DNA of 64,000 nt from Isurus oxyrinchus (taxonomy: Eukaryota), in NCBI GenBank assembly GCA_026770705.1, contig JANJGN010000034.1, positions 3,844,001 through 3,908,000 on the forward strand, read 5' to 3'. The notes under the pieces were generated by a model. That model was not told the origin of the DNA and searched no databases. It saw only the letters and a list, made by a program, of their open reading frames with translations. The first letter of the stretch is position 1, and each line of letters begins with the position of its first letter. Shown here piece after piece: positions 7,564 to 61,451 of this stretch. The translations under genes and the position numbers were made by a program.

Positions 7564-7599
7564 CTTTGTCTTTTAGGGCTTGTGCTAATTTCCTTATTT
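7564..7599 (-). CDS. 36-nt micro-exon C3, (E)IRKLAQALKDK
   Basis: cctttttttctttcag|AAATAAGGAAATTAGCACAAGCCCTAAAAGACAAAG|gtgatg. Paralog of C1. Confidence 0.87.
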
Positions 7600-7879
7600 C
7601 TGAAAGAAAAAAAGGTTAACATTAGGACAGTGCATCTGGCTTATTAAATCAAATGTTTGTAATTTTGAATTAATAATCTTGCCGGAATCATTGTGTATTT
7701 GCAACTATCTTGTCTCTGCGTTGGACTGCTCTATTCATCGGTCTTCCACCTGAAAACCTTCATAAACAGGAGGGGAACGAAGATCTAACAGCCCAGTATC
7801 CGAATTTGCAATAATTTATGTTCACCCAGCACCAAAGTTTCTATATCCTGTATTGAATGTTAATGAGTTTTAGCAGGAG

Positions 7880-8310
7880 TTCATGAACCATTACCGGTTA
7901 TTCAAAAGGTGCACTATTGCGTACATATTTATCGACTGTTCTATGTGAATAATGTTAAGATTTTGATCAGTGTTATAAAAAATGCATAAACTGATGTCTT
8001 TCTTCTTAAAGAAGGGGTTGGGCAGAATATGTATTCAAATATTAAATGGATTGTTTTTGGACTGTTGGGGAAAAGCTGCCCCATCTACCAACTGGATTCG
8101 TCATCAGAGTTCAGAAATACAGATTATTAAGGAAAACGTTTGCATAATATTTGTGAATTAGCGTTGTCACGTCTGGAATTCTTGACTTGAATTGCCGTAG
8201 TAAATTCCAAAATGCCATTGAAAGTACATTTGGAACAAACAAATTCACACATTATAAAATGAATTGTAATGTCCTTCTGTAGATCCAACACAGAACCGAC
8301 AGACAGAACA
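7880..8310 (+). mobile_element. Decayed CR1 3' fragment within intron B3-C3
   Basis: Remnants of LEYCVQF (ggtgcactattgcgtaca) and RVVxxWN (agcgttgtcacgtctggaat). Confidence 0.42.
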
Positions 8311-8426
8311 ATCCCATCCAGTGGTGTTAATTTCCATGCATATACTTGTACGAGAACTTCTACTATTTGCTTCCCAGATAATTTTGTATCTCAACAAAAT
8401 GCACTCATCATAGTTCTTATAGGTAC

Positions 8427-8453
8427 CGTCATCTTTCTGAAGAAAAGCTCCGG
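8427..8453 (-). CDS. 27-nt micro-exon B3, (A)GAFLQKDD
   Basis: ttttcttcgctttttttcag|CCGGAGCTTTTCTTCAGAAAGATGACG|gtacct. Very strong acceptor, weaker donor; paralog of B1/B2. Confidence 0.8.
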
Positions 8454-8529
8454 CTGAAAAAAAGCGAAGAAAATAGATAGCTGAACAAGGAGAAAGAACA
8501 CATTTGAAACATTTTGCACGTTTAGCTGA

Positions 8530-9460
8530 CTATTGCATGATTATGAATGACTTTGGCACATCGATGCTATTCAGAAAATCATTCCATAATCTTTGAAAAA
8601 TGCAATGGCAAAAATTACTGAAGGGAACCAGGCCCAACTCACAACATTTATTGAAATAATAAATTAAGTTTGTAATAGCAATGATGACCAAAGACGGTCT
8701 GATATTATGGTTCTGGCAATCTGCTAATAGGAAGTGGGCGGATCTTTTCACATTATTTCCAGGAATCTCCTCAGATTAGACAAAACATAAGGAGACAATT
8801 GAACAACATGTCCATATTTCGTTTCTGCGTGTCTTGAAGTTCCACATCACTTTGTAACCAATAAGGCGCTTTAGCAATTTGTTCACTGTTGTAATAGCCG
8901 TCAGGATGACTTCTATAATGCAAAATCCTAATGACAAAATTTTGTATGAATGATGCAATTTGGAGAATTTATCTTGCCGATACGGCGTTAAATTCTTTGC
9001 ACACTCAAGTGAGTATAAGCAGTCACATGAGAATCTCCCGGACAATGGCAAGCGAGTTGTCCAATATCTTGTATCCAGTGTACACCTCTCAGTAAGCAGC
9101 TATAAAATCATTAAATTTAGACATGAGAGCATTGTCATTCGTAAGAGTGTGGCACGAGGAACTGTAACTGTGGTTTTCAATGTTATTTCAATAACTGAGG
9201 ATCCAGTAAATTTCCATTGATGATAAAGTTTTCCTGATTCATATGACCCCTAATGTTGCTAATGACCCCTAATGACCCCTAAGCCAAAGGTATGCTGTTG
9301 CTGTCCATCGATAACAAGGGAGCAGATTTCATGCTTTGCCACTTTAATTAAGTAACGGAAACAACGCGCCCTTTCAATAATCTTTAGCCCGGATAAAATC
9401 CTGGCTATGGCAATTATAGCACTAACAAGTATTAGGTACTGTATGAATACCCACAACCTG
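8530..9460 (-). mobile_element. Decayed CR1 ORF2 fragment
   Basis: Reverse-strand RPVSL-like and SPG-D-like (tagcccggataaaatcctgg) remnants with many stops. Confidence 0.5.
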
Positions 9461-9599
9461 ATTATTGAGGGAGCTCATTGTTTCAGTGTAGCCAAAATCA
9501 GTCAGAAGTGCCGAAGTGATTATTTATATTGGCCTCCTCTTGGGGTCATCTAATCTCCCATATAACAGCTATCCACCAATTTGATTCATTGTACGCAAC

Positions 9600-10990
9600 G
9601 CCATGAAATGCAACTGCATTCTACAAAGGTTCTGGACTCTGAGAACATCAATACATTTACAATGAAGGCTCGTGCTCCAGAGGTGGACACTAGAAACTCA
9701 GTTGTGGCATTGTGGTTGAAACTTTGATATCGACATCCAACCAATTACAGGTCTATCGGACTACATATGATCATCCGAACTTAATGGAACTTCACGATGC
9801 AATGAAATGGCATTTACACGCAAGTGACCTGTTCACTGCTGGCCAGATTTGATTATGTGAGGTCCATTTGCCACGTTATTCATTCTAACCTTGATCCAAT
9901 TATTGACAAAATAACTGACACAAGGATGTGAGATATGTATGAATGCACTTGGACTTGATAAATCGTGGCCTCAAGCAGCTGCAGAAAAAAATGTCAACGA
10001 CAATGAAAGAAAAACTGATTGAAATGATAATTTGCAAAATTAGGAATGTTGTTGTTGGAGCCCAATGATCTGAGTCCCAACACGTGATTACGTCCTTCCC
10101 GTACATCGTTACCCGCATAACCTATGATCTTCCGACCAACATAGAGTCGGAGATGGCGATTCATGCTGATGATAGCATAATGTTCAGTGCCATTCGCAAA
10201 TGATCTGTAACTGAAACACTCCCTGTCCATTTGCAACAACACATAGATAACAATCTGGCTGGAGCTTGTAATTGGCACAGAAAATTTACACAATAGGTCT
10301 GCATGTAAGTGAACATTTACATCTTCAGAGACTATAATGCTTCCCGTTAGCATGGCATTACATTCATTGAATGTCCCACTTCTCAAAATTCTTAGTGTAC
10401 CACTGAATAGAAACTGAACTACACCAGACCGTGACATATCTTGGCTAGATGCACACGGCAGAACGTTGAAATTCTGCTCTAAATAACTGCCTTTCTTTCT
10501 CCCCAAAGCTTGTGAACAACGTGGAAGTGCAGAGTGATTTGAAATGGACTCGATGGCCTGGATTTTGCGGCTCCAAAAAATAATTAGGCAGGGCAATATC
10601 AGGACAACTGTAACAACTTTATCTCTAATTGCTGATGTGCCAAATTCAATATTCAATAATTTCACCACTAATGCTCAGGGTCCACCAGAAACCACGAGAT
10701 CTATTACTAAGAATGCTACCAGCAAGAAACACATAGGACTACATCATGTGCAAGTACCACGCCAAGTAAAATACTGTGCTGATTATAGCTATGTTGGTAT
10801 TTATTTTTTCGCTGCTGGTGCACTAAGATCTTTGAGTTGCTTCCAAACAGCATTGGGCACGTAGCTGTAACACATTGAATGCAAAATTTTAAGAGGAGTC
10901 TTTACAACCCCTTGCATGATCACTGCAGCTTAGGTAAAAAAAGAAAATGCGTTCTTAACAATACACAAATCCCATGAATTAATCCAAAGA
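9600..10990 (+). mobile_element. Family-B LINE RT-to-3' end fragment
   Basis: gctgatgatagcataatgttcag (ADD catalytic motif), ttggagccca (LGP) and a family 3' end near 10900-10990. It explains the 224-aa antisense ORF. Confidence 0.62.
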
Positions 10991-13149
10991 AAGATGGATT
11001 TTGATCATTCCTGTATACCAAATATTCCACAAGATTGGCTTCGCTGACACTGTGGTGCCAAACTGCCATAAACTTTCTTGCATTGCAAGTGTTGAAATTC
11101 AGGGAAAAACAATATAAATTAGGATAAGATATTCTTTAAAAGAACAGGGAATTCACAGTCCGTCAAACACTATCTGTGGCGGGAAAAGCACTTCAATTTT
11201 CAGACCGATGACTCATGATCGGTGTTGAAGAATGATTCAGTCCATTTAATGGAGAGTTGCTCTTCCGGCATGTTACAGAAACGAAAGTAAGTGAAAGGGA
11301 ACTAAGGACATTCGAGGTCTGAGACCTGAATTTCAGATGTTTAATATGTAATTAGACAAAATATTGTTTGGATATTTTACTTCTTTCAAAACCGTGTCAT
11401 CATTTAAAGGTCTGACCGTGGTCATGAAAGATCTGTGTTCCAATTATTATCCGGCTTGTTGAACAGCTTTGTTATATGAGAATATAATCGCTTCAGCGGT
11501 ATTTTAAAACCTGAAAAATTAATTATTGAAATCCAATAAAATATTCCTGAAAGCATAGGTGATATGATGCACCTCTAGCATACACCTGCTTGGGGGATGC
11601 CAGTGTGCTCCACAACATCCGCCTCTGCAATGATGGCTTGCAGTTCAAGAAATTTTGGTTCGGAGTGGATGAACTGCTGACCAAACTCCGAAAACCTGTG
11701 GTGCATTAATAGTTAGGATTAACTGGATTTTTTCTTTTGCCAGGAGTCAGTCGCAGCCTACTGGCTTGCTCCTTTAGATATGTTCTGTCGTCAGGGCCAA
11801 AAGGGTGGCAAAACACGTGGGGCAGATTTTGGAGTACTTAAGACATCATTGCAAGAGCGTATGACCTAGCACTGGTTCCGGAGGTTCAGGTTCATTCTGA
11901 CTGAGGGGCCAACTTGATAACCTGCAGCCAGGCTAAGCATATTGTCCATTGCACCGAGTAACAGGCGCACCTGACGGGCTGAGTAAAAAAGAAAGTGGTC
12001 CTAGTATGTTCCCAGCCGTCTTGAGGATGAAAGTTGTGTTGCTAGCCTAGTGCAAAGGATCGCTGGGCATCAACTTGGGGCTGTAGGTGACATTGGAGAT
12101 GAGGGACACGGTCCAGTTCTAATGGTCCACCTGCATGTCAATCTCATTTTACTACAATGAAAGCTTCTGCAGAGAGGGTCTGATCTGCTAAGTTTGAAAT
12201 TAAAAGGCTGCGTTGGTCACCAGCACCACCAGCGTATGTTCAGAATAAGAGCTTGGATGTCAATGAGAGCGAAAACCCAGGCAGGCATACAAATTAAAAT
12301 GGCAAAGATAGAAAATAAATTCAGAAAGTAAAGCACTCGTCTGGGTCTGCATTTTTCCAAACGCCTCTGCATTTTCCATTTCACTGCGAACTTCTCATGA
12401 TTGCAACATCACATATTAATGTAACTCTTACCCCTGCCTTCTCACTGAATCCTCAAGTTCCTCTCGTCGCTTTCTATTACAGCTGTCATCAACCTAAGCC
12501 TTTTTTTCCGATGCTTCCTTCCCCTCCATGCCCTCACCAGTCTACCCCCACAACGCCGCCTGCATACACAACATTCCCGCCATGTCTCCTCCCGTGGCCC
12601 TTTGCTACATCCAGCTCAGCCCGTCTTGGTCTCCTTCTGCTTCATTGGTCTTTTCCCCATGCACTCATCCTCTGTTTCCTGCCTTCACCTTTCCCTTCGG
12701 CTCTCTCACTCTCCATGCTAACTGGATGGGGTGAAGTTGCGATGGGAACAATTATTCGGCCGAGGGATAGTCTGGGAGGCGAGAAAACCTGAAAGGAAGA
12801 TGAGTGTGTCTGTTACGGTGAGGGGATGTGAAAAAAAGGGCTGGATAGAGCAGCTAGGAGGACCGAGGAGGATGGCAACTTTCAGGGATAGCGGGAGGGA
12901 GCGGCCTGCAACAAGCTAAGGGAGCCAGAAAATATTATAATGGAGGAAGCATCAAGAGCTAGTGAGAAAGTGCAGCTCGAGAGCGAGGGAGTAAGTTTGG
13001 GGATGCAATCAAAGGCAACGAGGATGAGGAGAGGAAAGTAAAAAAAAGGGTGGTGAAATAGTGTGGTGGAGAAACAGCGACATTACGGTAGTCTGACACG
13101 GGTAAGGTGGAGTGATTAGAAGCAGCTGAGGTTCATTTCTCTTTCATCC

Positions 13150-13383
13150 AGATTATCCTAGGTTTTCGAAATTACTGCTCGAAATTGTAGCAGTGGCAGA
13201 AATTCCCAACTCATTTAAAACGTGCCTGGATATGAATTATAAGGACTATAAACTGCAGGGCGATGGTCTCGTGCTGAAAGTGGGATTAGGCTATGTGGCT
13301 AGTTTTTTTGGGCAGCACAGATACAATGGTTGAAGTGGGCTCTTTCTTTGCCATTAAATACCTATTTTTCTATGATTCTATGG
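13150..13383 (+). mobile_element. CR1 3' end with octamer-like tail
   Basis: aagtgggattaggc...ggcagcacagatacaatggttgaagtgggctc...ttttctatgattctatg. Confidence 0.62.
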
Positions 13384-13899
13384 CTTACCTGAATCAGACG
13401 GAAGAGTTTTGAACAGGTGTCTGCAGAGCTAGAGGATATAATTGTCCTAAGCTCGGACAATTCCTAAAATCTGGCAACGATGTAAATGTTTGAAGACACC
13501 GAAGTAGAGAGGCAAATTAACTTAGGGCTGTATGCTATCGGCTACATTGCCTAAATATGTCATTGAGAAGTGCAGATATGCGTCCTTATGGGGGTATCTG
13601 TAGAAAATTTAAAACAAAGCAGCTCGAGAGAACCATCCAATTCCACAAGTATTCATGAAAGGGACATGGTGTTTGTAAAAAAAAAAAAATTATTCTTTGA
13701 TGATAAGGAAAGCACTGTGAGAAAAAAAATACGAACGAGGTGATATAGAATATCTGGATGCTCAAAATGCAATCGAAAATGTACAACATACATATTTGCT
13801 ACAGGGGGCAAGAACTCATGATGTTGAGGTATCACATAAGCATGGCTAGAAGATTTTTAACGAAGGGGAAGTATAAACCTGTAGAAAAATTAATGATTT

Positions 13900-14960
13900 C
13901 CACGTTGGCAAATTTTAACTTGTGGAGAGCCACAGGTATTGATGCAGGAGCATCAACGAATTAGGATCTATATTCATGACTTGGATAAAGAGATACAATG
14001 TATTGCAGCCAATTTTCCTGTGAAAACTAAGATAGGCAAAGAAACAATGCATGAATCATAGGCAAATGGGTGTAGGGAGCAGAAACACTACAGATCGACT
14101 ATAAGGTGTAAACTTGAAGTTACATGCTTTGGTTAACATAATGTAAAATTAGAATGTCATTCAACTGAGGAGATATTCCAGAATTATGTGGTGCAGGTAG
14201 CTTTGCTTGTGCTTGTATATGATTCATGATAAAAGTTAGCATGACATTACACCAATGCATTCGGAAGGCAAACTGACTGTTAACTTGCATTGCAAGGCAC
14301 GTGGGGTGTAGGTGTCAGAAACAAAAACAGGAACAGAAATAGCATTAAAAACTTAGCAGATCTGGCAGCATCAGCGGAGAAGAGCACAGTTGACGTTTCG
14401 AGTCCTCAAGAACATAACACGGTTTTGGTGTCAGCATATCTTGCTACAACGGTACAGTACATTGGTGACCCTGCACAACGAACATTGCACAAATTTGTTT
14501 GTCCCCGAACATAAGGGATATATTTGCATTTGCACCACTCGATTAATTCATGTCATGAAGGCGTTGCTTCTTGAGGAACTATTGAGCAGGTTTGCTCTAC
14601 AATCAATTGAGTTGAGACGAATGAGTGTTTGTTTTTAAAAATACAACATATTGAGGCAGGCTGGACAAGATCTATGGTAATAAGTATTTCTCCAAGTGGG
14701 GGAAGAAAGAACTGGGAAAACATTTTCCAATTGTGCTGTCCCCTGTTCAATACAGAATTGAGGGTGAATTTCTTCCAGTAAGAGTTATTATTCTTTGCAA
14801 TAATCTAACGCAAGTAACAATTAGTTAGATGTCATCGAATATCCTCGTATTTCTTACAGTAGCAACTAGCTTTTGAGCAACAGGAAAAAGGAAGGTAGGA
14901 ATGGAAGGAGCAAATGGAAAGTTTAGTGCTTGCATGGCAGGCAGCGTAGAACAAGGTAAA
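13900..14960 (+). mobile_element. Decayed CR1 RT/3' fragment interrupted by a Penelope-like terminus
   Basis: KFxxxTKIG-like (aattttcctgtgaaaactaagataggc), IRKAN (attcggaaggcaaac) and NFFxxRV (aatttcttccagtaagagtt) remnants. Confidence 0.55.
14317..14415 (+). mobile_element. Short Penelope-like terminal repeat (shark-type)
   Basis: aaacaaaaacagg...aaaacttagcagatctggcagcatcagcggagaagagcacagttgacgtttcgagtcctca. An older copy lies at about 11135-11225. Family assignment is from memory. Confidence 0.55.
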
Positions 14961-17929
14961 TACCAATCAGAAAAAAAGAGGCAGCGATAATGATGTAAGC
15001 ATTTTGCACATGATACCAGGTAAAGATGGCTGTAGAATGATGAGCCTAAACGTGAACAAATCATTGTACAGCTTTTCTTGAATTCGATTGGATCTCTGTA
15101 AAAAAAATGGATAGAATGGCGAAAAAAGCTGGCTAATGCAAAAAAAAAATAAAACAAACGAAATCTCTGGATAATATTTGAGATTCACAGCATGCATAAT
15201 GTTTGTTTTTGCACCATTTGGTGCTGTTATCTGAACATAGCTTTCAAATCAGTAAGTCAAAAACTGGAGCCAAACTTTTGCAAGAAAATCTGGGAAACTG
15301 TTCCATGCCATAATGCCGGTAGGAGGTTTGAACTCCCTCTCACCAACAACATTTTATTTTTAAACGTCACGTCAATGCTGAGCTTTTAGCCTGTGATTGA
15401 CGAATTCATTTTAACCACAGGCTTCTGGGATTTGAGACCTCTCAAATTATAATGTAACACACTCGAGGTGCTCGATGGTCTGCACCTGCTGCTATGGTCC
15501 TAAGCCTCTTTGCAACCACCTTTATCTAAACAGGTAAACATATACTCTGAAGCATCTCGCCTGCTTTAAATATCTAGATCCTTCTTAGCTCTAACACAGC
15601 TGCTCGCTGCAGCTGAACGTCGCTGTGTCTATTACTTTATAATAGTCTTTCTCGGTCTCTGTTATGCCTCATCATTATGATAATTATGGAGTTGACACTC
15701 ATTGGGCTGGTTGGGTGCTCAACAGCCAGTGAACGACTCGCTGGCCTTCCCAGCAGGGATTGATCAGCTTCACTTTAATTGTTTTCAAGGAGTATTCTAT
15801 AACCCTGAATGCAGCAGTGCTCTGATCTGGGATACCTCCATACGGCTTTGTTAAACTGTGGTCATACAGCTCACACTTCTGTAACAGCAATTATTTCAAA
15901 TCGGTTTCTCTAAATGGTTCTGCTTCGGATTAGAAGTCCAAACCAACACTGTCATTTACATCATCAGAAGAAAATGCTTTCTTAGTTTCGGATGAAACGG
16001 AGCAGTTCATTAAGGGCAGAGTAGAATCTTTCCTTAAAATCTATATTTGAGACAAGAGTCATGGCATAAAAGCTAATGATGGGAGCATATTGGTTATGGC
16101 TGAGTTGTAGGCGGGACGTCATACACCTTTTATCCATCCGATAGCAGAGTTTTGGCCTATTCCAAATTAAACATCAATCCGTGGAGAGGAGGTTCCATTT
16201 CCACCTTCCTATTCCATTTGAAAGTATGCCACGCAATTTGTCCCTTCTCTTGCTCCTGCTACATTGTGAGGGGGATGCCAATGTGGATTCCTGATAACTA
16301 ACATAACACAATTGCAGTTGTTCTGCAGGGTGATCACTCTCAGGTTTATCGATGAGCATTCTGACAATGCACGTTGCAAAATATAGAGTTTAATTTGCTT
16401 GGCAAATAACTATGATGATACAGCTCAATATGGCTCCCCAGGCAGAGGGGAGAAGAGCGCATATGTGTAGCGTACCTTCCCTGGGTCCTTCTATATCACC
16501 GTAGACGTGTCGAACAAACGTCTGCAACCTCTGCGCGGAGATTTTGTCTGAAGACTCCCCGTTGTAGATTCCTGCCCCGGCTCTAATCCTCGGAAAACAA
16601 GAAAACAGTCAATGGCATCATTCCGCTGTGAAATATATCTGGTGTAAAGAATGTGTGCATTTATGAATGGGTGGGGTTGCTGAACGTGAGGCTTCTTCTT
16701 CACACTGGGCTATTCATGGCATTCGATTTGCTGTTGTAGCCAGATGCATGTTTATTTATTTTTTTGCTGGCGCTTCCAAAGGAAAAATTAAAAAAAAACA
16801 ACCTGCTCAATTGTTAACTCCTGAATGTTATTAATTGGGATATTCAGTGATTTGTATTTTGGTAGGAATGAAGGAGAGATGGTTAGTATTCTTCCTTGCT
16901 AGAGATATTTACTGCCTGGCATTTAGGTCGCAAGAATGTGACATGTTGCTAAGCAGCCCAAGCTTTTACGCTGCCCAGAAGATTAGCATTAGAAAGGGCA
17001 TCAGAGTCAATGAATTATTTCACAGCTTTAGTCTAAATTTGTGGAATTATTTGTGTGACAACATATTTTGTCACACTGTCAATAGCACATTTTGTTTCAG
17101 TAAGGCTACAGCTAAGATATCTGTTCAGTTGTTGGAAAATGCAAGATCATTACACTCTGGTTAAAATACATATACCCCCAAGAACAGAACGAATGGTCAT
17201 TTCCCAGGTACTGTTTGTCACTGAATGTGCTTTGGACGCATGTAATGTAGACTGTCTTTCTACGAGGATTCTTCTATGCTGTTTATCCAAGACCCCCACT
17301 GAGCATGACTTCACCTAGCCTCAAATAATGGCCTAAAAAAGATTCGATCAATCCATGCCTCAAGGAAATGAATGTTTTCTCCTGTTGATTAGAGCTGACT
17401 TTATAGGAAAGAAATGTTTCGTGCCATAATCGGTCACCAGCCTGCGTTTTTTTTTTACAATCTTGCTCTCCATGAAATTCTATGGACAGAGGTTTATCTC
17501 GAATTTTGCTAGTTTTTTTGCACAACTAAATTGCAAGGAATCTTATATATTCAATTGCTGTGAAGGAGAGATTAGTTTCTATATATTGCTGACATTATTG
17601 CCTTTAATTTTGAAAATATCCATAATTCAAGGCAACATTTTCCCGAAGCAATTAAGACACGGTGGCCTCTGTGCATAGCTTGGTTATTTTGTATGTAATG
17701 ACGTATGATCATACAGATTTGAGTACCTGCGATGTCATTGAAGTGTTTAGCTCTTACTTATGAAACGCAAACCCGTCTGCCATTTGGATGAAGTTTGAAT
17801 TAGAACAATTCATACTTTTCAACAACTGCAATGTCGATAACAGTTCATTACAAAGAAGGCCCACTCGGGTGACTGTCATTGCTTAGTAACTTCTAACCAG
17901 AACATATCAAAGCCAATGCTTCAATATAG

Positions 17930-19200: not shown

Positions 19201-19399
19201 GCTTTTGACGTTAAATAGGTTCATATAATAGATTCATAAGGGACAGTTACTCATACATTTTAACGAAGTGGTTACCAGACATCCCTTGCCAGTTTAAATT
19301 AGAGGAAGGGGAAAAATCGAAGTTTAATGGATGAAATGAAATAACAGGGAAAAAAAAAGAAAAAAAATCATTCATATATCTTCCAAGATATTTCCTTAC

Positions 19400-19426
19400 C
19401 GGCGTCTTGAAGAAGCTTGTCTAACA
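19400..19426 (-). CDS. 27-nt micro-exon A3, (V)LDKLLQDA
   Basis: ggctttattgaatttacag|TGTTAGACAAGCTTCTTCAAGACGCCG|gtaagg. Near-duplicate of A2, 18.3 kb away. Confidence 0.92.
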
Positions 19427-19904
19427 CTGTAAATTCAATAAAGCCTTTTTGAAAACAATCAACATAGAAATCAGACATCATACAATATTTTTTGGGCGGA
19501 ATCTTGTTGTCCGCCAGATTATCCCTTCTCCTTCCTAAAACATTCCAGTGATTTAAACAGAGGAGCATATCGAGAGCACCCTGTCACATTTATCTTATGT
19601 AATGCCACCTGTTGAGCAACTATAAGCCAAGATGATTCTGAGCGTAATTTGTAAAATGTTTCCTCAGATAAAAAAAAATGTTACAGGCAATAATAAATAA
19701 TATCAAATAATAGCTGTGATGAATTTACTCAATTTGAATGAGTCACAGAATTATTTGGTCCTATTTTGATTTCAAAAGGAATTTCCATGAAACTGCTTGT
19801 TTCAGCCCATGGCTGTTCTTATCAATAGTATCAAAACCAATGTAAGTTCTGTTCTTTCAGGTCTAACGCCTGCATTTTGAGAGCAATTCTTAATTCCATT
19901 CGAC

Positions 19905-19978
19905 GGGGAGGGGGAGTGGGGCAGCGTGTGTGTGTGTGTGTCGGGGTGAGGGGGGAGTGGGTGGGTAGCGGGGTGTTG
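19905..19978. repeat. (GT)8 microsatellite embedded in G-tracts
   Basis: ggggagggggagtggggcagc(gt)8cggggtgaggggggagtgggtgggtagcgggg. Confidence 0.8.
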
Positions 19979-43448: not shown

Positions 43449-43455
<7 letters not shown>

Positions 43456-49199: not shown

Positions 49200-51800
49200 A
49201 ATGATTAACGAACTTACAATAAAGAATCAAGTTGTTTAGAATAATCATAACATGATTGTATTTAACACCCAGTTCGAGGGCAAGCAACGTGAAATTGTAA
49301 TTACAAATTCAATGAAAAATAATATTTGCAAGAGTATGATAGCAGAGTTTCCTGAAGTCTATTGGGAAAGTAGCTGAAAATAATAAAATGGTCGAGAAGC
49401 ATTGGCATTCATTTAAGGAAACATTTCACATTTTTCAACAAAGAAATGTTCTTTTAAGAAAGAAATACCAAATGTTAAGGCTGCACCATCTGTGGCAAAA
49501 TACGACCCTTAATGATCATATTAAATTATAAAACGGCAAATGCAATGCTCTAAAGTGCATTATGAGGTCAGAATACTTGAAAAAACTTATAAATCTGCAG
49601 GTTATGAGAGAAAATAAGAAAGTGGAAATTGTAGCATGAGAGAAATCGATCAAGAGATATGCAAACATCGAGTAAAAATGACAAGTCATGTTTAAAAAGG
49701 GAGAGAATAAAATCAAAGCTAACGTATGCGTTGTTCCCTTGGGAGGATGTGCCTTGGGACTTAAAAATAGGAACAAGAAACTGCATGGACTTTGAATATG
49801 CATTTTGTATTTGCCTTCGCAGTAGAAGACACAAAACGAATGCCAGGAAAAATACAGATAATAGGGCAATAGTGAGGTCGAAATGTAAAATAATTACGAT
49901 CATTGCTTAAAAGAATTGGAAAAGGTAAGTGGTCTCAGGACTTGTAAGGCAGTTTGATTTGATGGCTCTACATCTTACGTTATAAAGGTTAGTGGTTGCA
50001 GAGACTTGCGATGGTTGTAATCTTCCAAAGTGTAATAGATTTTGTAGCAAGTGTACTGATGTTTGGAAACTTAAAATGTAACTCCATTATTAAAAAAAAA
50101 TGAAATCAGGAAGGACGTAGGCTATCATATGGCATTGGAAAACGCTGGAGTTCATTAATAATAGAAGTCCACAGGAACATAAACATAAATCAAAATGCAA
50201 CAAGGCAATGTCTAAATAATATTCTGAATTGGGTTTCGAATTTATTAAATTAACTGGAGAACCTAAAAGGTGCAACAATTAAGGTTGGCAAAGCATAAGA
50301 TGTGTCGTGCATTTGACTTTTCAAAAGACATTTGATAAGTTTCAGCAGTAAAAAAAAACTAACTTGGAAGTCCGAACTCAAGGCGTTCGAACGTGAAATA
50401 TACACATTCATTAAGGCAAAGGAAACAGGCAGTGGTGATAAATCATTCGTTTTTTCTCTTAGGTTTGAAATCTCTATTGGGTGGAGTCAGAAGCGCATCA
50501 GTGTTCGGGCCTCAATTAGTTGCCATCCGTGTTAATGATTTGACTTCATTGACACGTTGTATTGCAGGAACATTTTCCGTCTAGTCAATGGTGGCTAGGG
50601 GCGCAGCATGTGAATGTAAGGATGAAGATGAGCGTGAAAGTGACATAGATAAGTCAGGTGAGAGGCGGCAAGATGGTAGATGTAATGGGATAATACTTGA
50701 GGATGTCTACTTTTGAAGGAAGAATGTGAAATCAGTCCATTATTTACATGGAGCGAGCTGCAGGACTCCGCAGTGCAGTCTACCATGTGTCCATCTGCAT
50801 GAATCGGAGAAAGAAAATGTGTACAGGTAAATCAATTAATTAACAGCACAAATGGAATGTTGGAATTTATTACAATGGGGTTAAACTATTTAATTTGAGA
50901 AGACTTGCTACATTTCTACAGCATTAGCTGAAACCATATCTAGTTTATTTTGCGTAGTTTTGCTTTTGTTACAGATTGAAGGATAAATTTGCATTGGAAG
51001 CATTACAGAGAATGTTCACCACCATGATTCCTTAGATAGAAATAATATCCTACGATGTGAGTTTGAGCAGGATGGGCTAAAAGCCCATTTCGAAGGATGG
51101 AAGGCGATCTCGTTGAAAATATACGATTCTTAAGTGGCTTGACAGGATAGATGCTCAGAGAATGTATTAATTCGTCAGAGAAACTCGAACTGGGAGGCAT
51201 TTTTTAAAAATAAAGAATCCTCTATTTATGTCAGAAATTGTGAACAATTTCTGCTGTCAGAGATGTGTTCGTCTTCGAGTGTACTTCCTCAGAGAACAGG
51301 GTCCAACTGATTTGGACATTCCTTTTATTTTGACTGCAAGAGACTTGCTGCCGGTGGAGGGTGAAACTGCTGAAGACAGGGTGCGAAAGTTTGACAATTA
51401 TGGTGAACGAGAAAGAAACGGGAGTAATGAAGAGGTAATTGTGGGTGAGGGAATGTGCTATGGAACGTGAAAGTAGGGAAAATAGGTCCCGCTCAAATCC
51501 TTTATTCTGCTCGCTGAACAACTGAGGCCATCCCAATCGTTTAATGAGTGAAGCCGTCTTCGCGCTCAATAACTCATGTACACCTCAAATGTTTACCACT
51601 GATTCAAAATATGAAATGGAGATACACATTGGATGTTTTTTACAAAGAAAGTTTGGCAAGCACTGTGCAAGTATATCTATGGCCTACACTGAAGTCCTAG
51701 GATTTAGTTTTTATGGCAGCTGGCAGGACGTTAGATTTAACGCCATTATCAGATCAGCGTAATCATATCAAATGGTGAAACAAGTTGGCTTGGACAAATA
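49200..51800 (+). mobile_element. Long decayed CR1 ORF2
   Basis: gacttttcaaaagacatttgataag (DFQKxFDK), tcagtgttcgggcctcaa (SVxGPQ), gaaggcgatctcgttgaa (GDLxE). Confidence 0.62.
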
Positions 51801-52923
51801 AGACAATAAAACACAGGAAATTAGGCCATTTGGCCCAATGAGTCTGCTGCGCCATTCAATCCTGGCTGAAAAATTTTGCTAACCCATACTCCTTCCTTCT
51901 CCCCTAACCTTCCATAATCATGAACCTATCTATCTCGGTCTTAAATACTCTCAAAGACCTGGCTACCACTGAATTCTGTGGTAATGAATTCCATAGATTC
52001 ACCACTCTCTGGTTAAATAGATTTCTCCTCATCTCTGCTCTAAAAGGTCTCCCCTTTACTCTGAGGCCGTTTTTCTCGGGTCCTAGTATCTCCTACTAAT
52101 GGAAATATCTTACCCACGTCCACGCTATCCAGGCATTTCAGTATTTTGTAACTTTGAATCAAATCCCCCCTCATCCTTCTAAACGCCATCGAGTATAGAC
52201 CCAGATTCCTGTAACGTTCCTCATATGTTAAGACTTTCATTCCTGGGATCGTTCTTGTGAAACTCATCTGGAACTTCTCTAGGGCCAGCACTTCTTTCCT
52301 GAGTCTGGGGCCCAAGATTACTCGCAATATTCCAAATGCGGTCTGGCCAGAGCCTTATAAAGACTCAGCAGCACATCGCTGCTTTTACATTCTAGTACTC
52401 TCGAAGTAGATGCCACCATTGCATTTTCCTCAGTAACTACCGACTCAATATGCAAGTTAACCTTCAGAGAATGCTGAACTAGGTTTGCCAAGTCCCTTTG
52501 CACTCCAGATTTCTATATTATCTCCCCATTTAGAAAATAGTTTATGCCTCTCACCTTCCTACCAAACTGCATGACCTCACGTTGTTTCCCATCTGCCAGT
52601 TTTTTGCCCATTCTCGTAACCAGTCCAAAACCTGCTGCAGCTTCTCCGCCTTCTTAATACTACCTGTCCCTCCACCAATCTACTTCATCTGTAAACTTTT
52701 CCAGGATGCCCTCAGTTAGATCATTAATGTATAAAGTGAAAAGTTGTGACCCCAACACCGACACCTGCGGAGGTCTTTTAGTCATCAACCGCCATCCTGA
52801 GATGGACCACCTTATCCACACTCTCTGCCCTCTGCCAGACAGCCAATCTTCTATCCATGCCAGTACCTTTCCTCTAACACCATGGACACGTATCTCTCTG
52901 TGCAGTCTCCTGTGCGGCACCCT
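51800..52923 (-). mobile_element. Relatively young 5'-truncated CR1 LINE
   Basis: Minus ORFs read VPHRRL..IRVHGVRGKVLAWIEDWL, SVLGSQLFTLYINDL, LYKALARPHLEYC and RRMRGDLIQ. Confidence 0.9.
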
Positions 52924-53141
52924 TTCCTATTTCTGTCACCTTATTGCACTTACGATTAAAATATTAAATAACGTTGGTGTTAATAGAGCAGCATAACATA
53001 CATGGTTGTCAAAGCAGATAGTGAATATGCTGGGAGCCAGCACGTTAACACAAGCACGTTCACACTAACAGCATTACATTGTAAACTAAAATTATGCATT
53101 TTTAGGTTTGGAAGCAGAGATCAACATCTGACTTTCCTGAC

Positions 53142-53177
53142 CTTTGCCTTTTAGTTCTTCCTTTAATTTTTTTATTT
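53142..53177 (-). CDS. 36-nt micro-exon C1, (E)IKKLKEELKGK
   Basis: acattttgcattgcag|AAATAAAAAAATTAAAGGAAGAACTAAAAGGCAAAG|gtcagg. 27/36 nt identical to C3 at 7564-7599. Confidence 0.85.
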
Positions 53178-55254
53178 CTGCAATGCAAAATGTAACAATT
53201 CGGAAGCATATTTTGGATCACGAGGGCATCTGAATTCAACTCTTGATGATGCAACTCCTTCATCTTTTCAAGTGTCTTCCCCATTATTACCTTGGAGACA
53301 TGAGAATATTCAACAGTCTCCTATCCCGACTTCCAAATTGAATTTCCCTGAACCTTGCCTTAATTCAAAGCTCTGCTGCGCATCAAGAGAAGCTGTCATG
53401 CAATGCGTCAATATTCTGCGGCCCGTCCGAGCTGCAGGTGCAGATATGGCTCTATTTCAAAAGCCGATTGATTTGTTTTAACATTTTTCACCCTGTGGTA
53501 ACAGGCTCCATCTTTATCGTATCTGGCACTAAATAAACAGGTATCCCCGTCATTTCAAAAATGGCATTTTGTAATTCAATTATAAATCAAATTTTAAACC
53601 CCCAGCAGCCCTGCATATATTTCAGCTCCAGGTTTTGAGGTCCTCACCACTCATCCTGGCAACACTTTGTAGTCATTACGGTACTTGAAACCTACCTCTA
53701 CAATAGAACTTTTGGCTTCCTTCCTTATATCATGTTTTTTTTTTCTTAATGTGGCTTAGCTTCACTTCTGTTTGCTGTTCTTGTTCACTAAAACCGAAGT
53801 TAAGCCATCCGCGGTGTGTTATGGCTTTCAATGGTCTATTATATGCAATTATATTTTGCAGTGTAATGCTATATTTTAATGTTGCATTGACCGTTATCTT
53901 AACAACTGCTTCTCCGAGTCTCCGCTTTCTGAATATGTTTTTTAGTGAATTTTCTGATACTTGCAGCTTGTTACTCATTCTCGCTGCTAACATTGATTCG
54001 ACTTTCACATAATTGAACAATGTCCCACTTAGTAAATGTATTACTACATGCATTAGTAAATTGAAGTAATTTCAATGCCATTGCACTCGAAGAGTTGTCA
54101 AAATTGCCCCATTTTACAGCTCACATCCATTTTGGGTGGAGAATGGACCAACTTCCCAGTTAGATTCATCCTACAAATATGCATTTTCTTTCTCTTTTTA
54201 TCAAATCTATTGTAGAGTGCAATTGAGAATTTTTGTAGGTTCAGAGCAGGCGGTATTTCCCAACATCCCAATATAAGCTGCATCAGAAAAAGAATGTCAA
54301 TGAGTGCGTTGAAACTGATTGTGTGGCGTTTCTTAAATTGGATTACTAAACATCTTTTGCCCCTTCATTGTGTATGAAAATTATGCATTTTAACCTAATT
54401 CTCCATAAGAGCCTTTCTCCCAGACTCTCCGTTACTTCCCAGGTGAAAATGGCGGAAAGAAGCTGATAAGAACTCTAGAAAGCACCAGTGGAGCATTCAG
54501 GATTTTTTTCATTGTAAGATTATGAACATATGGGAACATAAATTTTGACATTCTTTTTACGCAAATGGAGATGCTTGGTAGGGCGACAGTGTTTAAGATC
54601 TGAAGAGGCAGGCTCCGCTATTAATATTGAATGAGAAACTTTGGGTGGGGAATAAGTGGTCATAACAATAAAATGCCCCAAGTCCTACACAGGGGCGATT
54701 ATCAAAGATAATCTGCCGGAAAGAATACTAACTTTGATTCGGTAGATCGCCAAATATTTGTTCAATGAGGCAGAATTTAAAGGATATATTGCCCTCGAGG
54801 GGCGGCATTAATTAGGAAAACAATCTCCTATCTTATTTAACTCCTCAACTGAAACACACCAGCAAATGAGGGACAACTGACAATACTGGTTGCGCACGAG
54901 AAGAAAATTGAATGCCTGCATGCTATCTTGGAGATGTAGGGCCTCCACTTCCTAACAGAGACGTTGGAATACATTAGTACTGTACGTAAACACATACATT
55001 AATGCTAATAAGGCTCACTTGCATTTCACAGTTTCCCGAGTGTTGCAAAGTTTGTGATGTGGAATACCATTCAGTGAGAAAAACAGAAATATTCAGTTAA
55101 ACATAATAAACATCAACGATTTAAGATTGCACAATTTTGGTTGTGCAGTATCGGGTTTAAATTGATGAATTGTCCAGTGAACTTTTCAGACTGTTACCTA
55201 GATGCCATAGCATCCTAGGTCGAGTTTAATTTAAAAAAAAACACTGACACTTAC

Positions 55255-55281
55255 CATCCTCTTTTTGCAACAGTGCTATTG
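55255..55281 (-). CDS. 27-nt micro-exon B1, (A)IALLQKED
   Basis: ctgtttgtgttttgcag|CAATAGCACTGTTGCAAAAAGAGGATG|gtaagt. Consensus donor; paralogous to B2/B3. Confidence 0.88.
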
Positions 55282-56149
55282 CTGCAAAACACAAACAGTT
55301 AATAAAAATCAATAAAAATCAGCAGAACAAGGGAAAATATTTTCCTTCCATTATATGTGCATTTTTTTTGAAAAAACAACAATAATAAGGAACATTGAAA
55401 TAGGAATGTGATATTAATTGCTAAATGGATGTAGGTAAATTGACGCATGCATCACCTTTATCTCATAGCTGTAGCCCGAAGCAATATGTTAGAAAACATT
55501 TAAGAAAAGCAGCGCCGATTACATGCGGTGATTTTTCTAATATCTAAGAGCAATGATTTTCCGAAACCTTTGTTCTCGCCTCGGAACTGAGCCCAGGAAA
55601 TGGAACGGGAAAGAACGATTTATATTTCTGCATGGTCAGTAAAACTCTCAAAATCTACCTGGCATCATTACACCCACTAAAGTTCTTCTGAATTCCCGTT
55701 GCTTTCGTTATCAATTAGGCAGATTAGTTATTTTACATGCTGTAAGCTTTAACTGAAGGGCTATGCAGCAAGTGCTGCACTACCCAGAAGTCGTACTTTT
55801 ATGGAACAAAAACGTTGGATCAACTTTTTAACAAATTTCCTGCAGGGGACTTTGGCAAACTCCTTCTGAATGAATACATTTATAACACGTGTATATTTAT
55901 ATATATGTGTGTGTGTGTAAATTTTCGACCCCCCACACATCCCTCCACCGCTAATGAAAAAGGAAATTAATTAGTCTTTACCAAATCCATGTGTGCACTC
56001 CTTGATTAACATAAGCCTTCTCACATTAATTTTCAATATGTTTCTCCTAATGTTTTCCAATATCCTCGCCACAACAATTATTCTCCTCATTTTCCTGATG
56101 TGTCCTTTGTTACCAGACTAACCTTCATTTGATAAACATGATAGTTTAT

Positions 56150-56482
56150 TGTTTTCGTGGGATGTGGGCATTGCTGGGTTGTCAGCATTTACTTTCGATC
56201 CCTGTTCAAAGGACATTTGTTATGATTTAACTATGTTAGTCTGGATTGAGGCATATATTGGCCAGACCAGGTAAGGGAAGCAAATATCCAACAGTAAGGG
56301 CAGAAGGGAACCTGGTCGCTTTTTATTACAGTGGTTAACAACGTCCTGGTCATCATTCGGCTAATCTCCAGATTAGTGGATTCAAATTTCACCATGTGTT
56401 TCGTGAGTGTAAAATTGAGTCCCCAAAGGATTAGCCTGGCCCCCTGGATTCTTCGTCCTGTGACAATACAACTCTGCCACCA
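56150..56482 (-). mobile_element. tRNA-derived SINE sharing its 3' tail with the family-B LINE
   Basis: gggatgtgggcattgctgg tail, ggccagaccaggtaaggg and attcaaatttcaccat body, ctctgccacc head. An opposite-orientation copy lies at 62690-63070. Confidence 0.6.
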
Positions 56483-57379
56483 GCAACTTTCCAGTGTCAA
56501 GGCAGTGCACTTGTGAATCCAGTCAAAATTAGAATTTTGTGGTTAATATTTTTCTTTTCTGATTATCTTATCCATTGCCGGTCAACCGAGGATCATTTCC
56601 AACTGAATATGCAACTTGTGAAAACCTGCAGTAAATCTCCTTGTTCTATGGTCTGCCCTCTGGGCAACAATATGCGTTAAACTCTACAACAACTTAACGC
56701 CTCCAGTTCTGAAGCACTCACTCTTAACTCATGCCTTGCAATTTCGTGCCCTGACTAAGTGCTAACCCTGCGTCTAAATAAATGTCTTTTCAAGCGGCGG
56801 TCCCTGAACTTTTCAAAATTCCAAGTTAATTCTTCTTCAACAATTACCAAGGTGCAGTGCAGTCTTTCTAACCCTGTATTCACCTCCAAACGCGAAGTAC
56901 TATGGCTGCTTTCCAAGAGCTCAGTGTTGAATCTTACAATGAGGTTTTGAAGAGAAGCAAACTCCCATAAACAAAGTGACAAGTATGAATGCCTTGCATT
57001 TTAATCATTTCCTATTTGACCATTGAACACATTGCACTAATTTCCCCTGCTGGAATTCAACATTGGCTTCGACCACAATCAAAAATTTTACGGATATACA
57101 GCCGTCATTCCACTGACATTCTCCGAAGCATGACCAACGCTTTAGCAGTTGCAGATTGTGATCAGTATTGATAATTGAACATTTCATAACGCAAAGTGGG
57201 TTTTGATTAATTAACGTGCTGCAAGACAGAATAGATTCAACTTATTGCAAAACGAAACGGACCAGTAGAAGAAATAAATGCCTGAGTCCTGCAGGCCTGA
57301 AGCCACTAATTTTTGCAATTTCGTATTTTTTGCATTTTGTTTTTTTCTTTGCTCTTGATGTTTAGCCTATCTGAATATG

Positions 57380-60260
57380 TAAAGTGATGTTGTACTGAGT
57401 CTTAATTTGATTAAAACCCAGCTATGATTGTGCAATATTAATTTATCAATAATGATCAGTAGTGACCTGCTTTGCTTGTTTTTTTTTCAGAATGGCCATG
57501 CACATCTGGTATTGATGTGCTATTTTTGTATTCAAATTTTCAAGATGGAACATATAAAAATAATTTTTCTTATGTTTATTATTATTTTTTGCTTCATTTA
57601 GTGATCCTTGGACTACAGGCCGGATCGATGAAAAACCTGATAGTGGTCATCGGAAGGTGAAGCTTCATTGTTGGATGTAACATGTGAAGGATGACTTATG
57701 GGTAGACAAAATGAAAAGATACGTAAGCAAATTGGAAACTGTGTGATTTGTCTAGCTTCACAGTGCCTATAAAAAGAATTGATTAGAACTGACTTGTTTT
57801 GAGAAGCGATTCTACCAGACAACGCAAGAAGAGAATAGATCCAGAAATCTGGCTGGAAGGGACAGTTCTTCGATGTCTTGTTGCTGCAGCCAGTATTGGA
57901 GCAGTCGCCAATGAAGACGAGTGGAAGGGACATAAATGACTGACTGACCTGGTGCCCACCCGTATGCTGGTTAGTGATGTGGCAATGTGTGTACCAAAGA
58001 CATTGTGACATATATGCCACCTTAGGGTGCTGCGGTGGAACAGACTGAATTACACCTATCCATTGTCCAGAGCTGCCTTGGAACAGACCACTTTGGCGTC
58101 ATTATTTGTATCTTCTGTCTTCTATTAGATTGATAAATGTAACTTGTTTCTTTCTTTCAAATGATTTTATTTTTCTTTAATTTCGTGTATACTAATATAT
58201 TGTCATTATAAATGTTATTTGATTATTACTAATATTAATATTCAATAACATTGCTGTTTTAACACGATATTTGTCAAAGTCAAACATTCCTATTACGTTC
58301 AGTGTATGGCTCTGGAACTAAGCGAGACTCAGAAAGGGACTCGCAGGCCCCTCCTATAGAAAATTGGCGAGAGGGAGAGGAGCAGGATGTCGAACATGGA
58401 TCGCATTCTGTGTTCTGGTTCAGGTTGACAAGCTACATTTAAAATTACTAACATAGTTTTTGTTCTGGAGCGTGAGTGAGAAGGAATATCCTGAAGAGGC
58501 AAATATGTTGGGTTTTGGAGGTACATACAATGTATGCAATGGCAGTCAGGGGCAGGTGGATAGTGAGCATTTCTCAATTCGTTTGTTCATGTATGTAAAA
58601 ACCTGGAAATTAATTTCCTCCCCACCACCCCACCCCCATTCCTGTTTCTGAAACTTTCTTTTGATTATTTTTTTGCGATTCCGAAAGTTATGTTCTGCAA
58701 ATCGTTTCATTTATTTAATTTTGAATTGCAGTTTTATTTGAAGAAAGATGATTCAAGAGAACTGACGTAATCTATTTCACTTTTACATGGAACTGTACCC
58801 ACTTGTTGTTTTGACTACATTTTAAGTTGTAAAGATAAATTGTGTAGTCGGGAAATATTCCAATGTTATTGCTCTTATAATGCGTATGTGTGTGAAATTA
58901 ATGAGCTTCCTTCCCTTGACTTGAATGTTGCATAAGAGTTTCAGAACTTTCACTTTACAATGAGGATTGTGATATGGATGAAAATGGAGAAGTTAATTAA
59001 ATAGTTTAAATATTTTAATTTATAAGATTAAAGTTGTGATTTCTGGCCAAAAACAACAACTTGAATAAATGTTGAGCAAAATATAGGAATTTTTATCCGG
59101 ATGCAAATTCACACATGTGAGGAAGGGGTAGATTCAAAGTTTCTTTTAATGTCAATTGGAAGAATAAAGAAAAAAATGAGCTTGTTTAATCTTGGCTGAG
59201 GAAGGTCTTACGAACGTTATGAGTTTTTGAAATGATTGGAATTTGATGTATCCTTGTCAAAATTGAAGAGAATTTTTAGAGAAAGAAAGATTCATCAAGA
59301 ACAATGAAGAGGGAAGACTTGATAGGGATTTAGTCTTGACCTGTGAAAACGTAATATTTAACGTAATAGTTCAATGATAATATTGTTGGGAAAACGTTGC
59401 ATCATGACGTGTAACATGAGCTGGAGTCAGTGATGCTGAATTTGATGTGGGTGAAAGGGAATAGCTAATGACAGAACCAGAAATTTAACATGGGGACATC
59501 ACTAATGAATAGTTGGATTTACCTATTCTGGAGGTAGAAGTGGAAAGCTTAAAATGGGAAACAAAATATATTTCATCCAAAGGGAATACCAACCAGGAGT
59601 CTGAGCTAAAGGATTAAGAAATTATGGACCATTTCCAATATAGTGTGTCATACATAGGATTGATTCGGGATGGCGCATTTTGCAACATCAATATAGCTAT
59701 CCATACGCACTAACATGTGGGAGATTACGTTTTAGGAACTCGGCTGGAAGCATATAAAAAAATGTGAGAAGTGATTATGCACCCGTGTGAGATCAGGGAC
59801 TTCACCAAAGCAACAAGTGGGTATCAGCAATCACTTGTAAATTGTGCAATGGAAGATGTTAGATTTAATGTCAAACGGTCACAAACTGCATGTATAGGCA
59901 AGGGACAATACTTTTACTGCTATAGAAAACGCATACATTCATGGACACGACAATCCATGCCCTGCTCCCGAAACAGCCTAGAAACACCACTCAGGATTGG
60001 TGTTCGCGAGTTCAGGAATACTTAGTGTCAGAATATTACAGAAAACATTGCAAAAGTTAGGATGACAGTCCAATTATCGGATTTTGTGTAAAGGTTTGAT
60101 GCCTATGCCTCACAGCTGCCACAACAACTTTCAGAATCATTATGTGCATATTGATAAAAAAAATAAAGTTGTTGATATCAGAAGTACCAGATGAAGGGAA
60201 AACTTGTGGGATTGGGACATCAATATGAATATTCATCCAGGGATTAGCATTATATCAAAT
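57380..60260 (+). mobile_element. Highly decayed LTR retroelement (Gypsy- or ERV-type): LTR-like block, PBS-like site, integrase remnant
   Basis: TATAAAA at 57768; TGGCGAG...AGGAG at 58365-58382. Stop-ridden frames at 59690-60230 give H-x3-H-x-G..CEK*, W-x-M-x-D, W...PCxRN, VFAxxGI and DWD. Boundaries are uncertain. Confidence 0.45.
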
Positions 60261-61424
60261 GTTATATGCATTGCCCAATACTCAATCTAATTGACTGGAA
60301 GTGATCTGAATCTCAGATGTCTAGCCTGAAACGGACGTTAGTTGTTGGCTTTGCAACCGACTGCAAGTGCAAGTTCGTACCAAACGAAATAATATTAATA
60401 GGGATGAAAAATGCCAGATTCGATATACTTGTTTTACTGATTTCTTCAAATAAAGATGCATATCCCCCTTTCCGATGATAACAGCTTGCATGTCCGTATA
60501 TGAAGCTGGGAAGAACGTAACATAAAGTATTTACCACAAGAACACCAAATTACCAATAAAATACAAAAAAATAAATTTCGAGAACAATTCTGCTCATGGT
60601 AACTATAAGCCTGGAAATCTGAAGGAGTAAACACACCAATTTGTAAATGAATTTTAAACCAACAAGCACAGGAACAAACATAAAAAAATCGGAGAATGTT
60701 TGGGTTTCATAGTGTATTTATGAATTGCCCTTGCGTTCTACAGAACACCATTTAATTGGCGAAATATGCATTGAATGGAAAACTCAACAAATGGCTGGGT
60801 ATGCTCCACTAAAAGCAAAATCTATTGACAAAATTTAATAATGTTAATCAAAGTCATACAACTTCCATTGACTACAGTAGTCAGAATAAGTATAAATAAC
60901 ACACCCACAGACAATTTACTCAGCATAACGTATATTTAAATACATTTCATTCGAACATTAGAATATGGAAGTTGTACCTACGACCAGAGAAAATTGTCTC
61001 CGTAACTACCGGAAATACATGTAGGCAAGTCACATAATACAAATTGTGATTTCGAAATTTATTCCATCCAATCACATGAATGCAATCCTGAGGGAGAACC
61101 CATGGGGTAAATATATTCAGTGTGGATGGAATTCGAGATGCCAGGATATGCAGACCTTAATTCTCAAAGCAATCCAGCAGGACAATTGTGGTCACCGGGT
61201 ATTGACTAAATAAGAACACAAACTCTTGAAGGAATCTTAATGGCAATTTGTGTTTTTTTTTTCCCATGCCGCTTGGCATTTGAATGCTTTCTAATAAGTC
61301 ACTTATCTCGAGTGCTCATTCTATGAGTTTGAGTTTGGAAGTCAGCTTTCCCAGTCACGACACTGCTGCAAATTAATTGTGTTAAAAGTAAAACATGATG
61401 TGTTCTAAGAAACAAATTGTGCAC

Positions 61425-61451
61425 CTGAGTCTTTCAACAACTTGTCATGAG
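61425..61451 (-). CDS. 27-nt micro-exon A1, (A)HDKLLKDS
   Basis: tattccatttttcag|CTCATGACAAGTTGTTGAAAGACTCAG|gtgcac. DKLLxD is shared with A2/A3 despite Leu codon changes (CTT vs TTG). Confidence 0.8.

Follow-up and report, generated by a model that had tools for sequence, protein, structure and literature searches.

The window analysed here is a stretch of 64,000 nucleotides (nt) from the shark Isurus oxyrinchus (G000:C34:3844001-3908000 of a 4.98-Gb assembly, contig JANJGN010000034.1); window position x is G000:C34:(3844000+x), and coordinates beyond 1-64000, given as + or - values, continue the window numbering. A predicted gene on the minus strand encloses window positions 1..64000 and runs past both ends; it is built of micro-exons and probably closes with a B30.2 exon far downstream. 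The repeated tiny exons of a preliminary description were confirmed: every named exon of the window reads on the minus strand, is bounded by AG and GT and has phase 1 on both sides. In the order of the gene they are A1 (27 nt, 61425-61451, HDKLLKDS), B1 (27 nt, 55255-55281, IALLQKED) and C1 (36 nt, 53142-53177, IKKLKEELKGK); E2 (27 nt, 38332-38358, IEILKENA), A2 (27 nt, 37704-37730, LDKLLQDT), B2 (27 nt, 28751-28777, KALLMKDA, with a weaker splice score) and C2 (26333-26362, LKKLTEKLK), a C-type exon shortened to 30 nt rather than 36; and E3 (27 nt, 20689-20715, GPEKKDNA), A3 (27 nt, 19400-19426, LDKLLQDA), B3 (27 nt, 8427-8453, GAFLQKDD) and C3 (36 nt, 7564-7599, IRKLAQALKDK). A 21-nt candidate at 25983-26003, probably the exon meant by D2, is doubtful: it has no match in modules 1 and 3, and its score of 12.5 is near the noise level, 23 plus-strand controls scoring >12. 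A run of N adjoining a simple-repeat tract lies at 43147-43328, within the C1-E2 intron, and two further exon-like sequences, at 13362-13388 (27 nt) and +88096-88131 (36 nt), contain in-frame stops and may be decayed exons or noise.

The copies resemble each other as had been reported. Recomputation gave exactly the same identities (23/27 nt for A2/A3, 27/36 for C1/C3 and 12 of the last 13 nt for E2/E3), A1 retains DKLL through a CTT CTT to TTG TTG codon swap, and similarity ends at the splice sites, the flanks of the window pairs being at background (16-21/57 nt upstream and 9-22/54 nt downstream). In a test with 30 shuffles, the best other matches of A2 (23/27) and C1 (27/36) exceeded every shuffle (maxima of 17-19 and 22-24, respectively); those of B1 (18/27) and E2 (19/27) did not at the DNA level. 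When AG..GT/GC candidates on both strands were ranked by peptide, four A and four B exons came out on top, and two plus-strand chance candidates ranked above every E exon, which makes E the weakest exon class. The intron sizes are exact as well (E-A 601/1262, A-B 6143/8926/10946 and B-C 2077/2388/827), and were thought to follow a conserved short-long-short pattern. This pattern fails beyond the window, where the E1-A1 intron measures 13,722 nt, E0-A0 2,942 nt and A0-B0 2,904 nt, and it is therefore poor evidence.

A missing E1 exon and further modules had been predicted beyond position 64000, and both are there on the minus strand: E1 at +75174-75200 and a fourth module from +91457 to +83371, comprising E0 (+91457-91483), A0 (+88488-88514), B0 (+85557-85583) and C0 (+83371-83406). 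The most upstream candidates of 27 or 36 nt lie at +130935 and +129872. On the other side, about 100 minus-strand micro-exons follow from -741 to -360047, including a block, between -228 kb and -282 kb, in which 36-nt and 27-nt exons strictly alternate. The copies of the `triplicated module' are thus real; the module itself is not a self-contained unit, as it belongs to an old segment of an array continuing for another 370 kb downstream. Overall, the earlier reading was essentially right, though it covered only about a tenth of the exons.

The strand bias of the array is pronounced. Among AG..G|GT candidates in 264 kb around the window there were 24 of 27 nt on the minus strand versus none on the plus strand, and 15 versus four of 36 nt; other candidate lengths numbered 1-8 each on the minus strand. 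The search was widened to 864 kb with scoring models trained on minus-strand seeds, which gave 129 minus versus three plus candidates at a score of >16; length-specific profiles gave 115 versus 0 at a score of >12. With a loose threshold, 150 non-overlapping exons extend from +131 kb to -360 kb, ∼500 kb in all, with 23 plus-strand controls also passing. The strict threshold retains 125 exons (72 of 27 nt, 43 of 36 nt and ten other; 1,252 codons) and two plus-strand controls. Of the strict set, 115/125 are 27 or 36 nt long and 4/125 are 21 nt long; it spans +130,961 to -353,632, with a median intron of 2.3 kb and a longest gap of 21.9 kb. Two candidates were dropped: a 39-nt sequence at +147816, which resembles a piece of long interspersed element (LINE) reverse transcriptase, and one at +90035, a likely LINE remnant. 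The last introns contain two open frames that are multi-copy and retroelement-like (-356667 to -355489, 393 amino acids; -346108 to -344648, 487 amino acids).

The array is followed by an intact B30.2/SPRY exon on the minus strand at -369881 to -369364 (G000:C34:3474119-3474636). It is in phase 1 and has 172 open codons and a stop, with AATAAA ∼30 nt further on. Pfam recognizes it as SPRY (PF00622; E = 3.3e-18, above the cut-off); the PRY model gave no match to it. Between +131 kb and -370 kb there is no second SPRY exon and no switch of strand. At the 5' end, ATG-to-donor scans, cross-paralog blastn and ortholog N-termini yielded only unconvincing candidates for a first coding exon (+153802 and +144866-144913). 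The nearest recognized gene on that side is a paralog in head-to-head orientation, starting near +161.5 kb, and an inverted repeat of 430 nt (88% identity; +150011-150432 and +151316-151747) lies between the two genes.

The composition and periodicity of the encoded peptide were analysed on a set of 131 exons joined in silico. Lys (17%), Glu (16%) and Leu (14%) together make up ∼47% of the residues. In the 36-nt exons (n = 43) the residue is hydrophobic at position 2 in 95%, at position 5 in 93% and at position 9 in 84%, and the core position 5 is Cys in 19/43. In the 36+27 block the period of 3.5 is strong, with 0/300 shuffles reaching the observed value. The unit between successive 36-nt exons is 21 residues long in 21/33 cases, 39 in 5/33 and 30 in 2/33. 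In a coiled coil, 21 and 39 residues can be split into heptads and 11-residue stutters and 30 cannot; the preference for 21 and 39 over 30 (P = 0.002 under a fair null, the copies not being independent) is a hint that unit lengths are kept at coiled-coil-compatible sizes. The final base is G in 119/120 of the 27/36-nt exons, partly owing to the seed selection; with phase 1, this makes the junction codons GNN, which are never a stop.

The duplications were earlier read as ancient, intragenic and under protein-level constraint. For A, B and C this stands: the ratio of nonsynonymous to synonymous differences (pN/pS) is 0.38 over nine pairs, with synonymous sites near saturation, and codon position 2 is identical in 50/67 cases versus 33/67 for position 3 (the pairs are not independent and the classes were set by similarity). 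For E it does not, as pN/pS is 1.28 for one pair and 0.90 over six pairs, indicating no constraint. The young 36-nt exons have a pN/pS of 0.75. The self-comparison proposed earlier as a check found no intron alignment around the window; intron-spanning self-alignments (up to 4,753 nt at 71%) occur only in the 3' part. There is thus an age gradient of block duplications, the window blocks being old and the 3' blocks younger.

Annotated proteins of other cartilaginous fish join this type of coil to this type of B30.2 domain. Catshark XP_038668997 is 72% identical in B30.2 and contains the peptides of two of the last nine micro-exons, in the same order and just before B30.2; catshark XP_038671249 (945 amino acids) and chimaera XP_042192744 (1,697 amino acids) have a long coil joined to this B30.2 type. 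Further relatives are chimaera XP_042191566-8, electric ray XP_069775384-90, skate XP_055510696 and basking shark XP_078422387. The B+C junction pattern of the window recurs in four of six family proteins, from chimaera, catshark, ray and skate (0-1/100 shuffles). Annotated isoforms, which are predicted models, differ by nine residues in electric ray (X1/X3) and chimaera (X1/X2) and by six in ray X1/X2. When two chimaera models are compared, 12 of their 15 places of difference involve 9, 10 or 12 residues, including a 12-for-9 swap; the differences of 9, 10 and 12 residues correspond to exons of 27, 30 and 36 nt, which suggests that the relatives use the same exon sizes. SPRY was the sole Pfam domain above the cut-off in all six family proteins scanned, with Ig, RING and B-box found in none. 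In a B30.2 tree of 34 rows (midpoint-rooted, with limited sampling and without XP_038671249), 12 rows of our own and of cartilaginous-fish type were separated from 22 butyrophilin (BTN) and TRIM rows by a 100/100 branch. The chimaera and skate models have a hydrophobic N-terminus (mean Kyte-Doolittle value of 2.3 over 15 residues). With the whole chimaera protein as a query, only the protein itself and its second model were retrieved (2/7,999 candidates), and a profile search of proteins of 652-2,000 residues gave one new family member among 23 matches. No named member from outside the cartilaginous fish was recognized among the matches listed, which does not in itself show absence from bony vertebrates. 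Most public models of relatives cover just the 3' end, under the names `TRIM39-like', `A33-like' or `nuclear-pore anchor-like'. A single-sequence AlphaFold model of the skate protein (mean predicted local distance difference test score of 45) was not used.

The gene has close relatives on the same contig. Of 150 scored genomic B30.2 matches, five are on C34, 138 on a second contig, C21, and seven elsewhere. Those on C34 are at 2.709 (-), 3.474 (-; the gene of the window), 4.817 (+), 6.396 (+) and 7.496 Mb (+); the B30.2 domains of the four paralogs are 44-45% identical to that described here, and all are preceded by micro-exons. The five genes span 4.8 Mb of the 19.9-Mb contig and are likely to form a cluster of giant genes belonging to a family common to sharks, rays and chimaeras, as judged by sequence. 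Samples of 10 kb showed micro-exons in most cases between 3.0 and 7.0 Mb and no micro-exon runs at 2.2-2.69 and 7.5-8.0 Mb. Exons of classes A, B, C and F, as in the gene of the window, also form the beginning of the downstream paralog, so the module types of the window are likely to be older than the duplication that produced this paralog. The copying that gave paralogs 4 and 5 was recent (pN/pS of 0.37 over eight micro-exons and 0.48 for SPRY); just upstream of their first recognized exons is a 22-kb segment (G000:C34:4827827-4850373 and 6433690-6455835) with 76-83% identity. The best handle on the N-terminus of the family is a conserved 111-nt phase-1 exon common to paralogs 3 and 4 (G000:C34:4005537-4005647, i.e. 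+161537-161647, and G000:C34:4859457-4859567), which opens with a short hydrophobic run. Upstream of paralog 5, a 49-nt ATG-to-donor candidate (G000:C34:6421428-6421476) reads like a signal-peptide exon, and the 5' part of this paralog (G000:C34:6459146-6528923) has about ten one-heptad exons of 21 nt, several with Cys, followed by exons of 27 and 36 nt. Beyond the cluster, four 27-nt candidates with an identical peptide lie 2-4 kb apart at G000:C34:7701102-7709070, suggesting a kilobase-scale tandem repeat. Two further family genes with micro-exons are on C21, at 89.7 and 91.3 Mb. Matches to major histocompatibility complex (MHC) class I (MHC_I; n = 33) number 31 on C21 and none on C34; at G000:C21:82-118 Mb a very large B30.2 cluster, several members of which have internal stops, is interleaved with MHC class I loci.

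Taken together, the array including its terminal B30.2 exon is probably one transcript, encoding a coiled-coil rod with a C-terminal B30.2 domain. At least 125 same-strand phase-1 micro-exons would be spliced to a B30.2 exon 377 kb beyond the window exons; joining into one mRNA is likely, on the evidence of the orthologous annotated proteins. The predicted product has ∼1,400-1,450 residues: a segmented rod of ∼1,250 residues, whose coiled-coil fold is suggested by the residue pattern, ending at the C-terminus in a binding head of the B30.2 type. The rod would oligomerize, presumably as a dimer, and present B30.2 at the tip. With a helix rise of 1.5 Å per residue, 1,250 helical residues would span up to ∼185 nm. 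A 36-nt and a 27-nt exon would supply 21 residues, or three heptads, and two extra 27-nt exons would give the 39-residue unit of the window, i.e. four heptads and an 11-residue stutter. Because exon lengths are multiples of three, with phase 1 and a GNN junction codon, duplication, loss or skipping of any exon or block should leave the frame intact. Repeated block duplication would have built the rod, the old blocks keeping similarity in their exons only and the younger ones also in their introns, and exon skipping may tune rod length among isoforms. Its most likely role would be that of a spacer or tether, holding a ligand-binding pair of B30.2 domains at a fixed distance from a membrane anchor at the N-terminus, much as butyrophilins do with their short heptad tail, though in this case with no Ig ectodomain.

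Several observations weigh against this reading. Only two of the last nine catalogued exons map clearly to the catshark model, and among 225 control proteins there is one whose B+C score, 28.8, exceeds the 26.8 of the skate protein. Training on minus-strand seeds inflates the minus-strand scores. The heptad signal is weak in the region of the window, where 47/300 residue shuffles reach the observed value, and from -60 to -225 kb the best period is 3.35 and that of 3.5 is absent; either the rod is interrupted or the exon catalogue has gaps. The 27-nt exons of the young block have a pN/pS of 1.0. Four RNA runs compared with window positions 19000-38999 gave short repeat-like pieces and no exon joint, which is evidence neither way. 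Finally, the first exon was not found, and the anchor comes from only two of six predicted ortholog models; the four without it may be 5'-incomplete.

As to topology, we lean, tentatively, towards an anchored protein with the rod and B30.2 in the cytoplasm, because the chimaera model has a hydrophobic start followed by basic residues: under the positive-inside rule, a basic cluster after a hydrophobic stretch marks the cytoplasmic side, and this would place the remainder of the protein there. A secreted or otherwise extracellular product of the same gene is rather unlikely, though it is the strongest competitor; its signal peptide would be cleaved, its rod locked by disulfides and its B30.2 heads outside the cell, in plasma, mucus or egg jelly. 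The Cys residues at core position 5 could indeed cross-link parallel chains, the 111-nt exon of paralogs 3 and 4 opens like the end of a signal peptide, the 49-nt candidate of paralog 5 reads like a signal exon and the skate model has a stretch resembling a signal at its start. However, no signal-like exon is tied to the gene of the window, the basic cluster of the chimaera model argues for the opposite orientation, and BG heptad tails and the heptads preceding B30.2 in butyrophilins are cytoplasmic in the passages that deal with them in PMC4046983 and PMC8813856. A soluble cytosolic protein seems slightly less likely again.

The remaining alternatives question the gene itself. The array might consist of several smaller genes or decayed fragments, leaving the window modules outside the B30.2 transcript: exon classes and age are not the same in the 5' part (with the window) as at the 3' side, there are multiple gaps of 15-22 kb, the candidates at +88096 and 13362 contain stops and most public models of relatives cover the 3' end only. 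This is improbable, as the array has a single SPRY exon and strand throughout, A/B/C/F exons are likewise the first ones of the downstream paralog, the long orthologous models hold the B+C pattern together with B30.2 and the A/B/C copies are constrained (pN/pS of 0.38). Still less probable is an ordinary butyrophilin/BG or TRIM gene with an inflated stalk, with Ig or RING/B-box exons farther upstream. The family profile does match the B30.2 domain of BTN3A1 best among solved structures (E = 4.8e-35), followed by TRIM21 as the next family (E = 1e-30); the database names of relatives point the same way, and a short Trp-containing segment before B30.2 (in paralogs 1 and 3, skate and chimaera) is like that of several BTN/TRIM proteins. 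Yet in tblastn searches of the 864 kb, 103 TRIM/BTN proteins matched only the SPRY exon and two retroelement-like spots; Ig and RING/B-box profiles, which detected held-out skate and shark controls at E < 1e-14, found nothing else below E = 0.1 in 28,698 targets; the head-to-head paralog begins close upstream; and the six family proteins scanned lack these domains, with a B30.2 outside the sampled BTN and TRIM rows. An origin of the exon-like matches in chance or in remnants of transposons is refuted for the array as a whole by the strand and length bias, the position-specific residue pattern, selection and the orthologous proteins, even though B and E matches do not exceed shuffles at the DNA level, some candidates (such as that at +147816) are false and single weak ones such as D2 may be noise. 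Other micro-exon genes considered (those of calpastatin, triadin, CD99, SCPP and collagen) were dropped once B30.2 had been found.

Returning to the single rod-and-B30.2 gene, we offer as a speculative extension that it represents a third, so far undescribed branch of the TRIM/butyrophilin B30.2 superfamily, retained in cartilaginous fish since before the shark-chimaera split. Its half-megabase-to-megabase genes, with more than 100 interchangeable micro-exons, would encode molecular rulers of up to ∼180 nm. Skipping of exons and duplication of blocks would create a large set of rods that differ in length and bear a B30.2 head for recognition; this diversification system based on splicing, with an immune or structural function, would have been nearly wholly missed by annotation. 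We found no description of the family in the open-access literature (mostly without subscription journals); supplements to shark genome papers might list the genes. Genes of this kind are mostly missed by gene finders. If transcribed as predicted, the five genes on C34 would, to our knowledge, be among the most micro-exon-rich vertebrate genes, and a natural test bed for how 27-nt exons are spliced over introns of kilobase size and for the way in which the geometry of a coiled coil depends on exon length.

As no Ig, RING or B-box was found, the gene does not appear to be a butyrophilin, BG or TRIM member, although it is built like their tails. A TRIM coil has about 100 residues in few exons. 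TRIM proteins (TRIM39, TRIM21 and fish btr/finTRIM) share with the shark gene a coiled coil followed by B30.2 (the period of 3.5 being clear in the 3' block and weak in the window), and the large B30.2 cluster of the MHC class I contig C21 includes two genes of the family; the shark gene differs in its lack of a detected RING/B-box and in its predicted coil of ∼1,250 residues in micro-exons. Guinea-pig enterophilin-1, a mammalian butyrophilin relative expressed in enterocytes, has an extended leucine zipper and a C-terminal B30.2 with no Ig or RING; compared by description only, its zipper is shorter than the shark rod. Passages in PMC13749957 and PMC9205943 give it a role with SNX1/EGFR. The butyrophilins BTN1/2/3, BTNL and ERMAP, as outlined in parts of PMC4046983, PMC8813856 and PMC12841164, have Ig V and C domains, a transmembrane segment, a few heptads and B30.2; they resemble the shark gene in having heptads and then a C-terminal B30.2, the splice linkage in the latter being likely rather than observed, and differ in that the shark B30.2 is ∼30-34% identical and on a separate branch of the tree. 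Chicken BG genes, in the sections of PMC4046983 and PMC8813856 devoted to them, have heptad exons of 21 nt (sometimes 24), 13-36 per gene, with an Ig V domain and a transmembrane exon, and no B30.2 is mentioned there. BG proteins form disulfide-linked dimers at the surface of the cell. BG genes are similar to the shark gene in having a long coil in many tiny exons, a variable exon number per gene, alternative splicing and a tandem cluster, and the 21-nt exons of paralog 5 are of BG size; the shark gene differs in its exons of 27 and 36 nt, at least 125 in number, its terminal B30.2 and the absence of a detected Ig domain. Since it has a small-exon coil and B30.2 without Ig in cartilaginous fish, the family, some members of which are on the MHC class I contig, bears on the origin of the butyrophilin/BG heptad tails.

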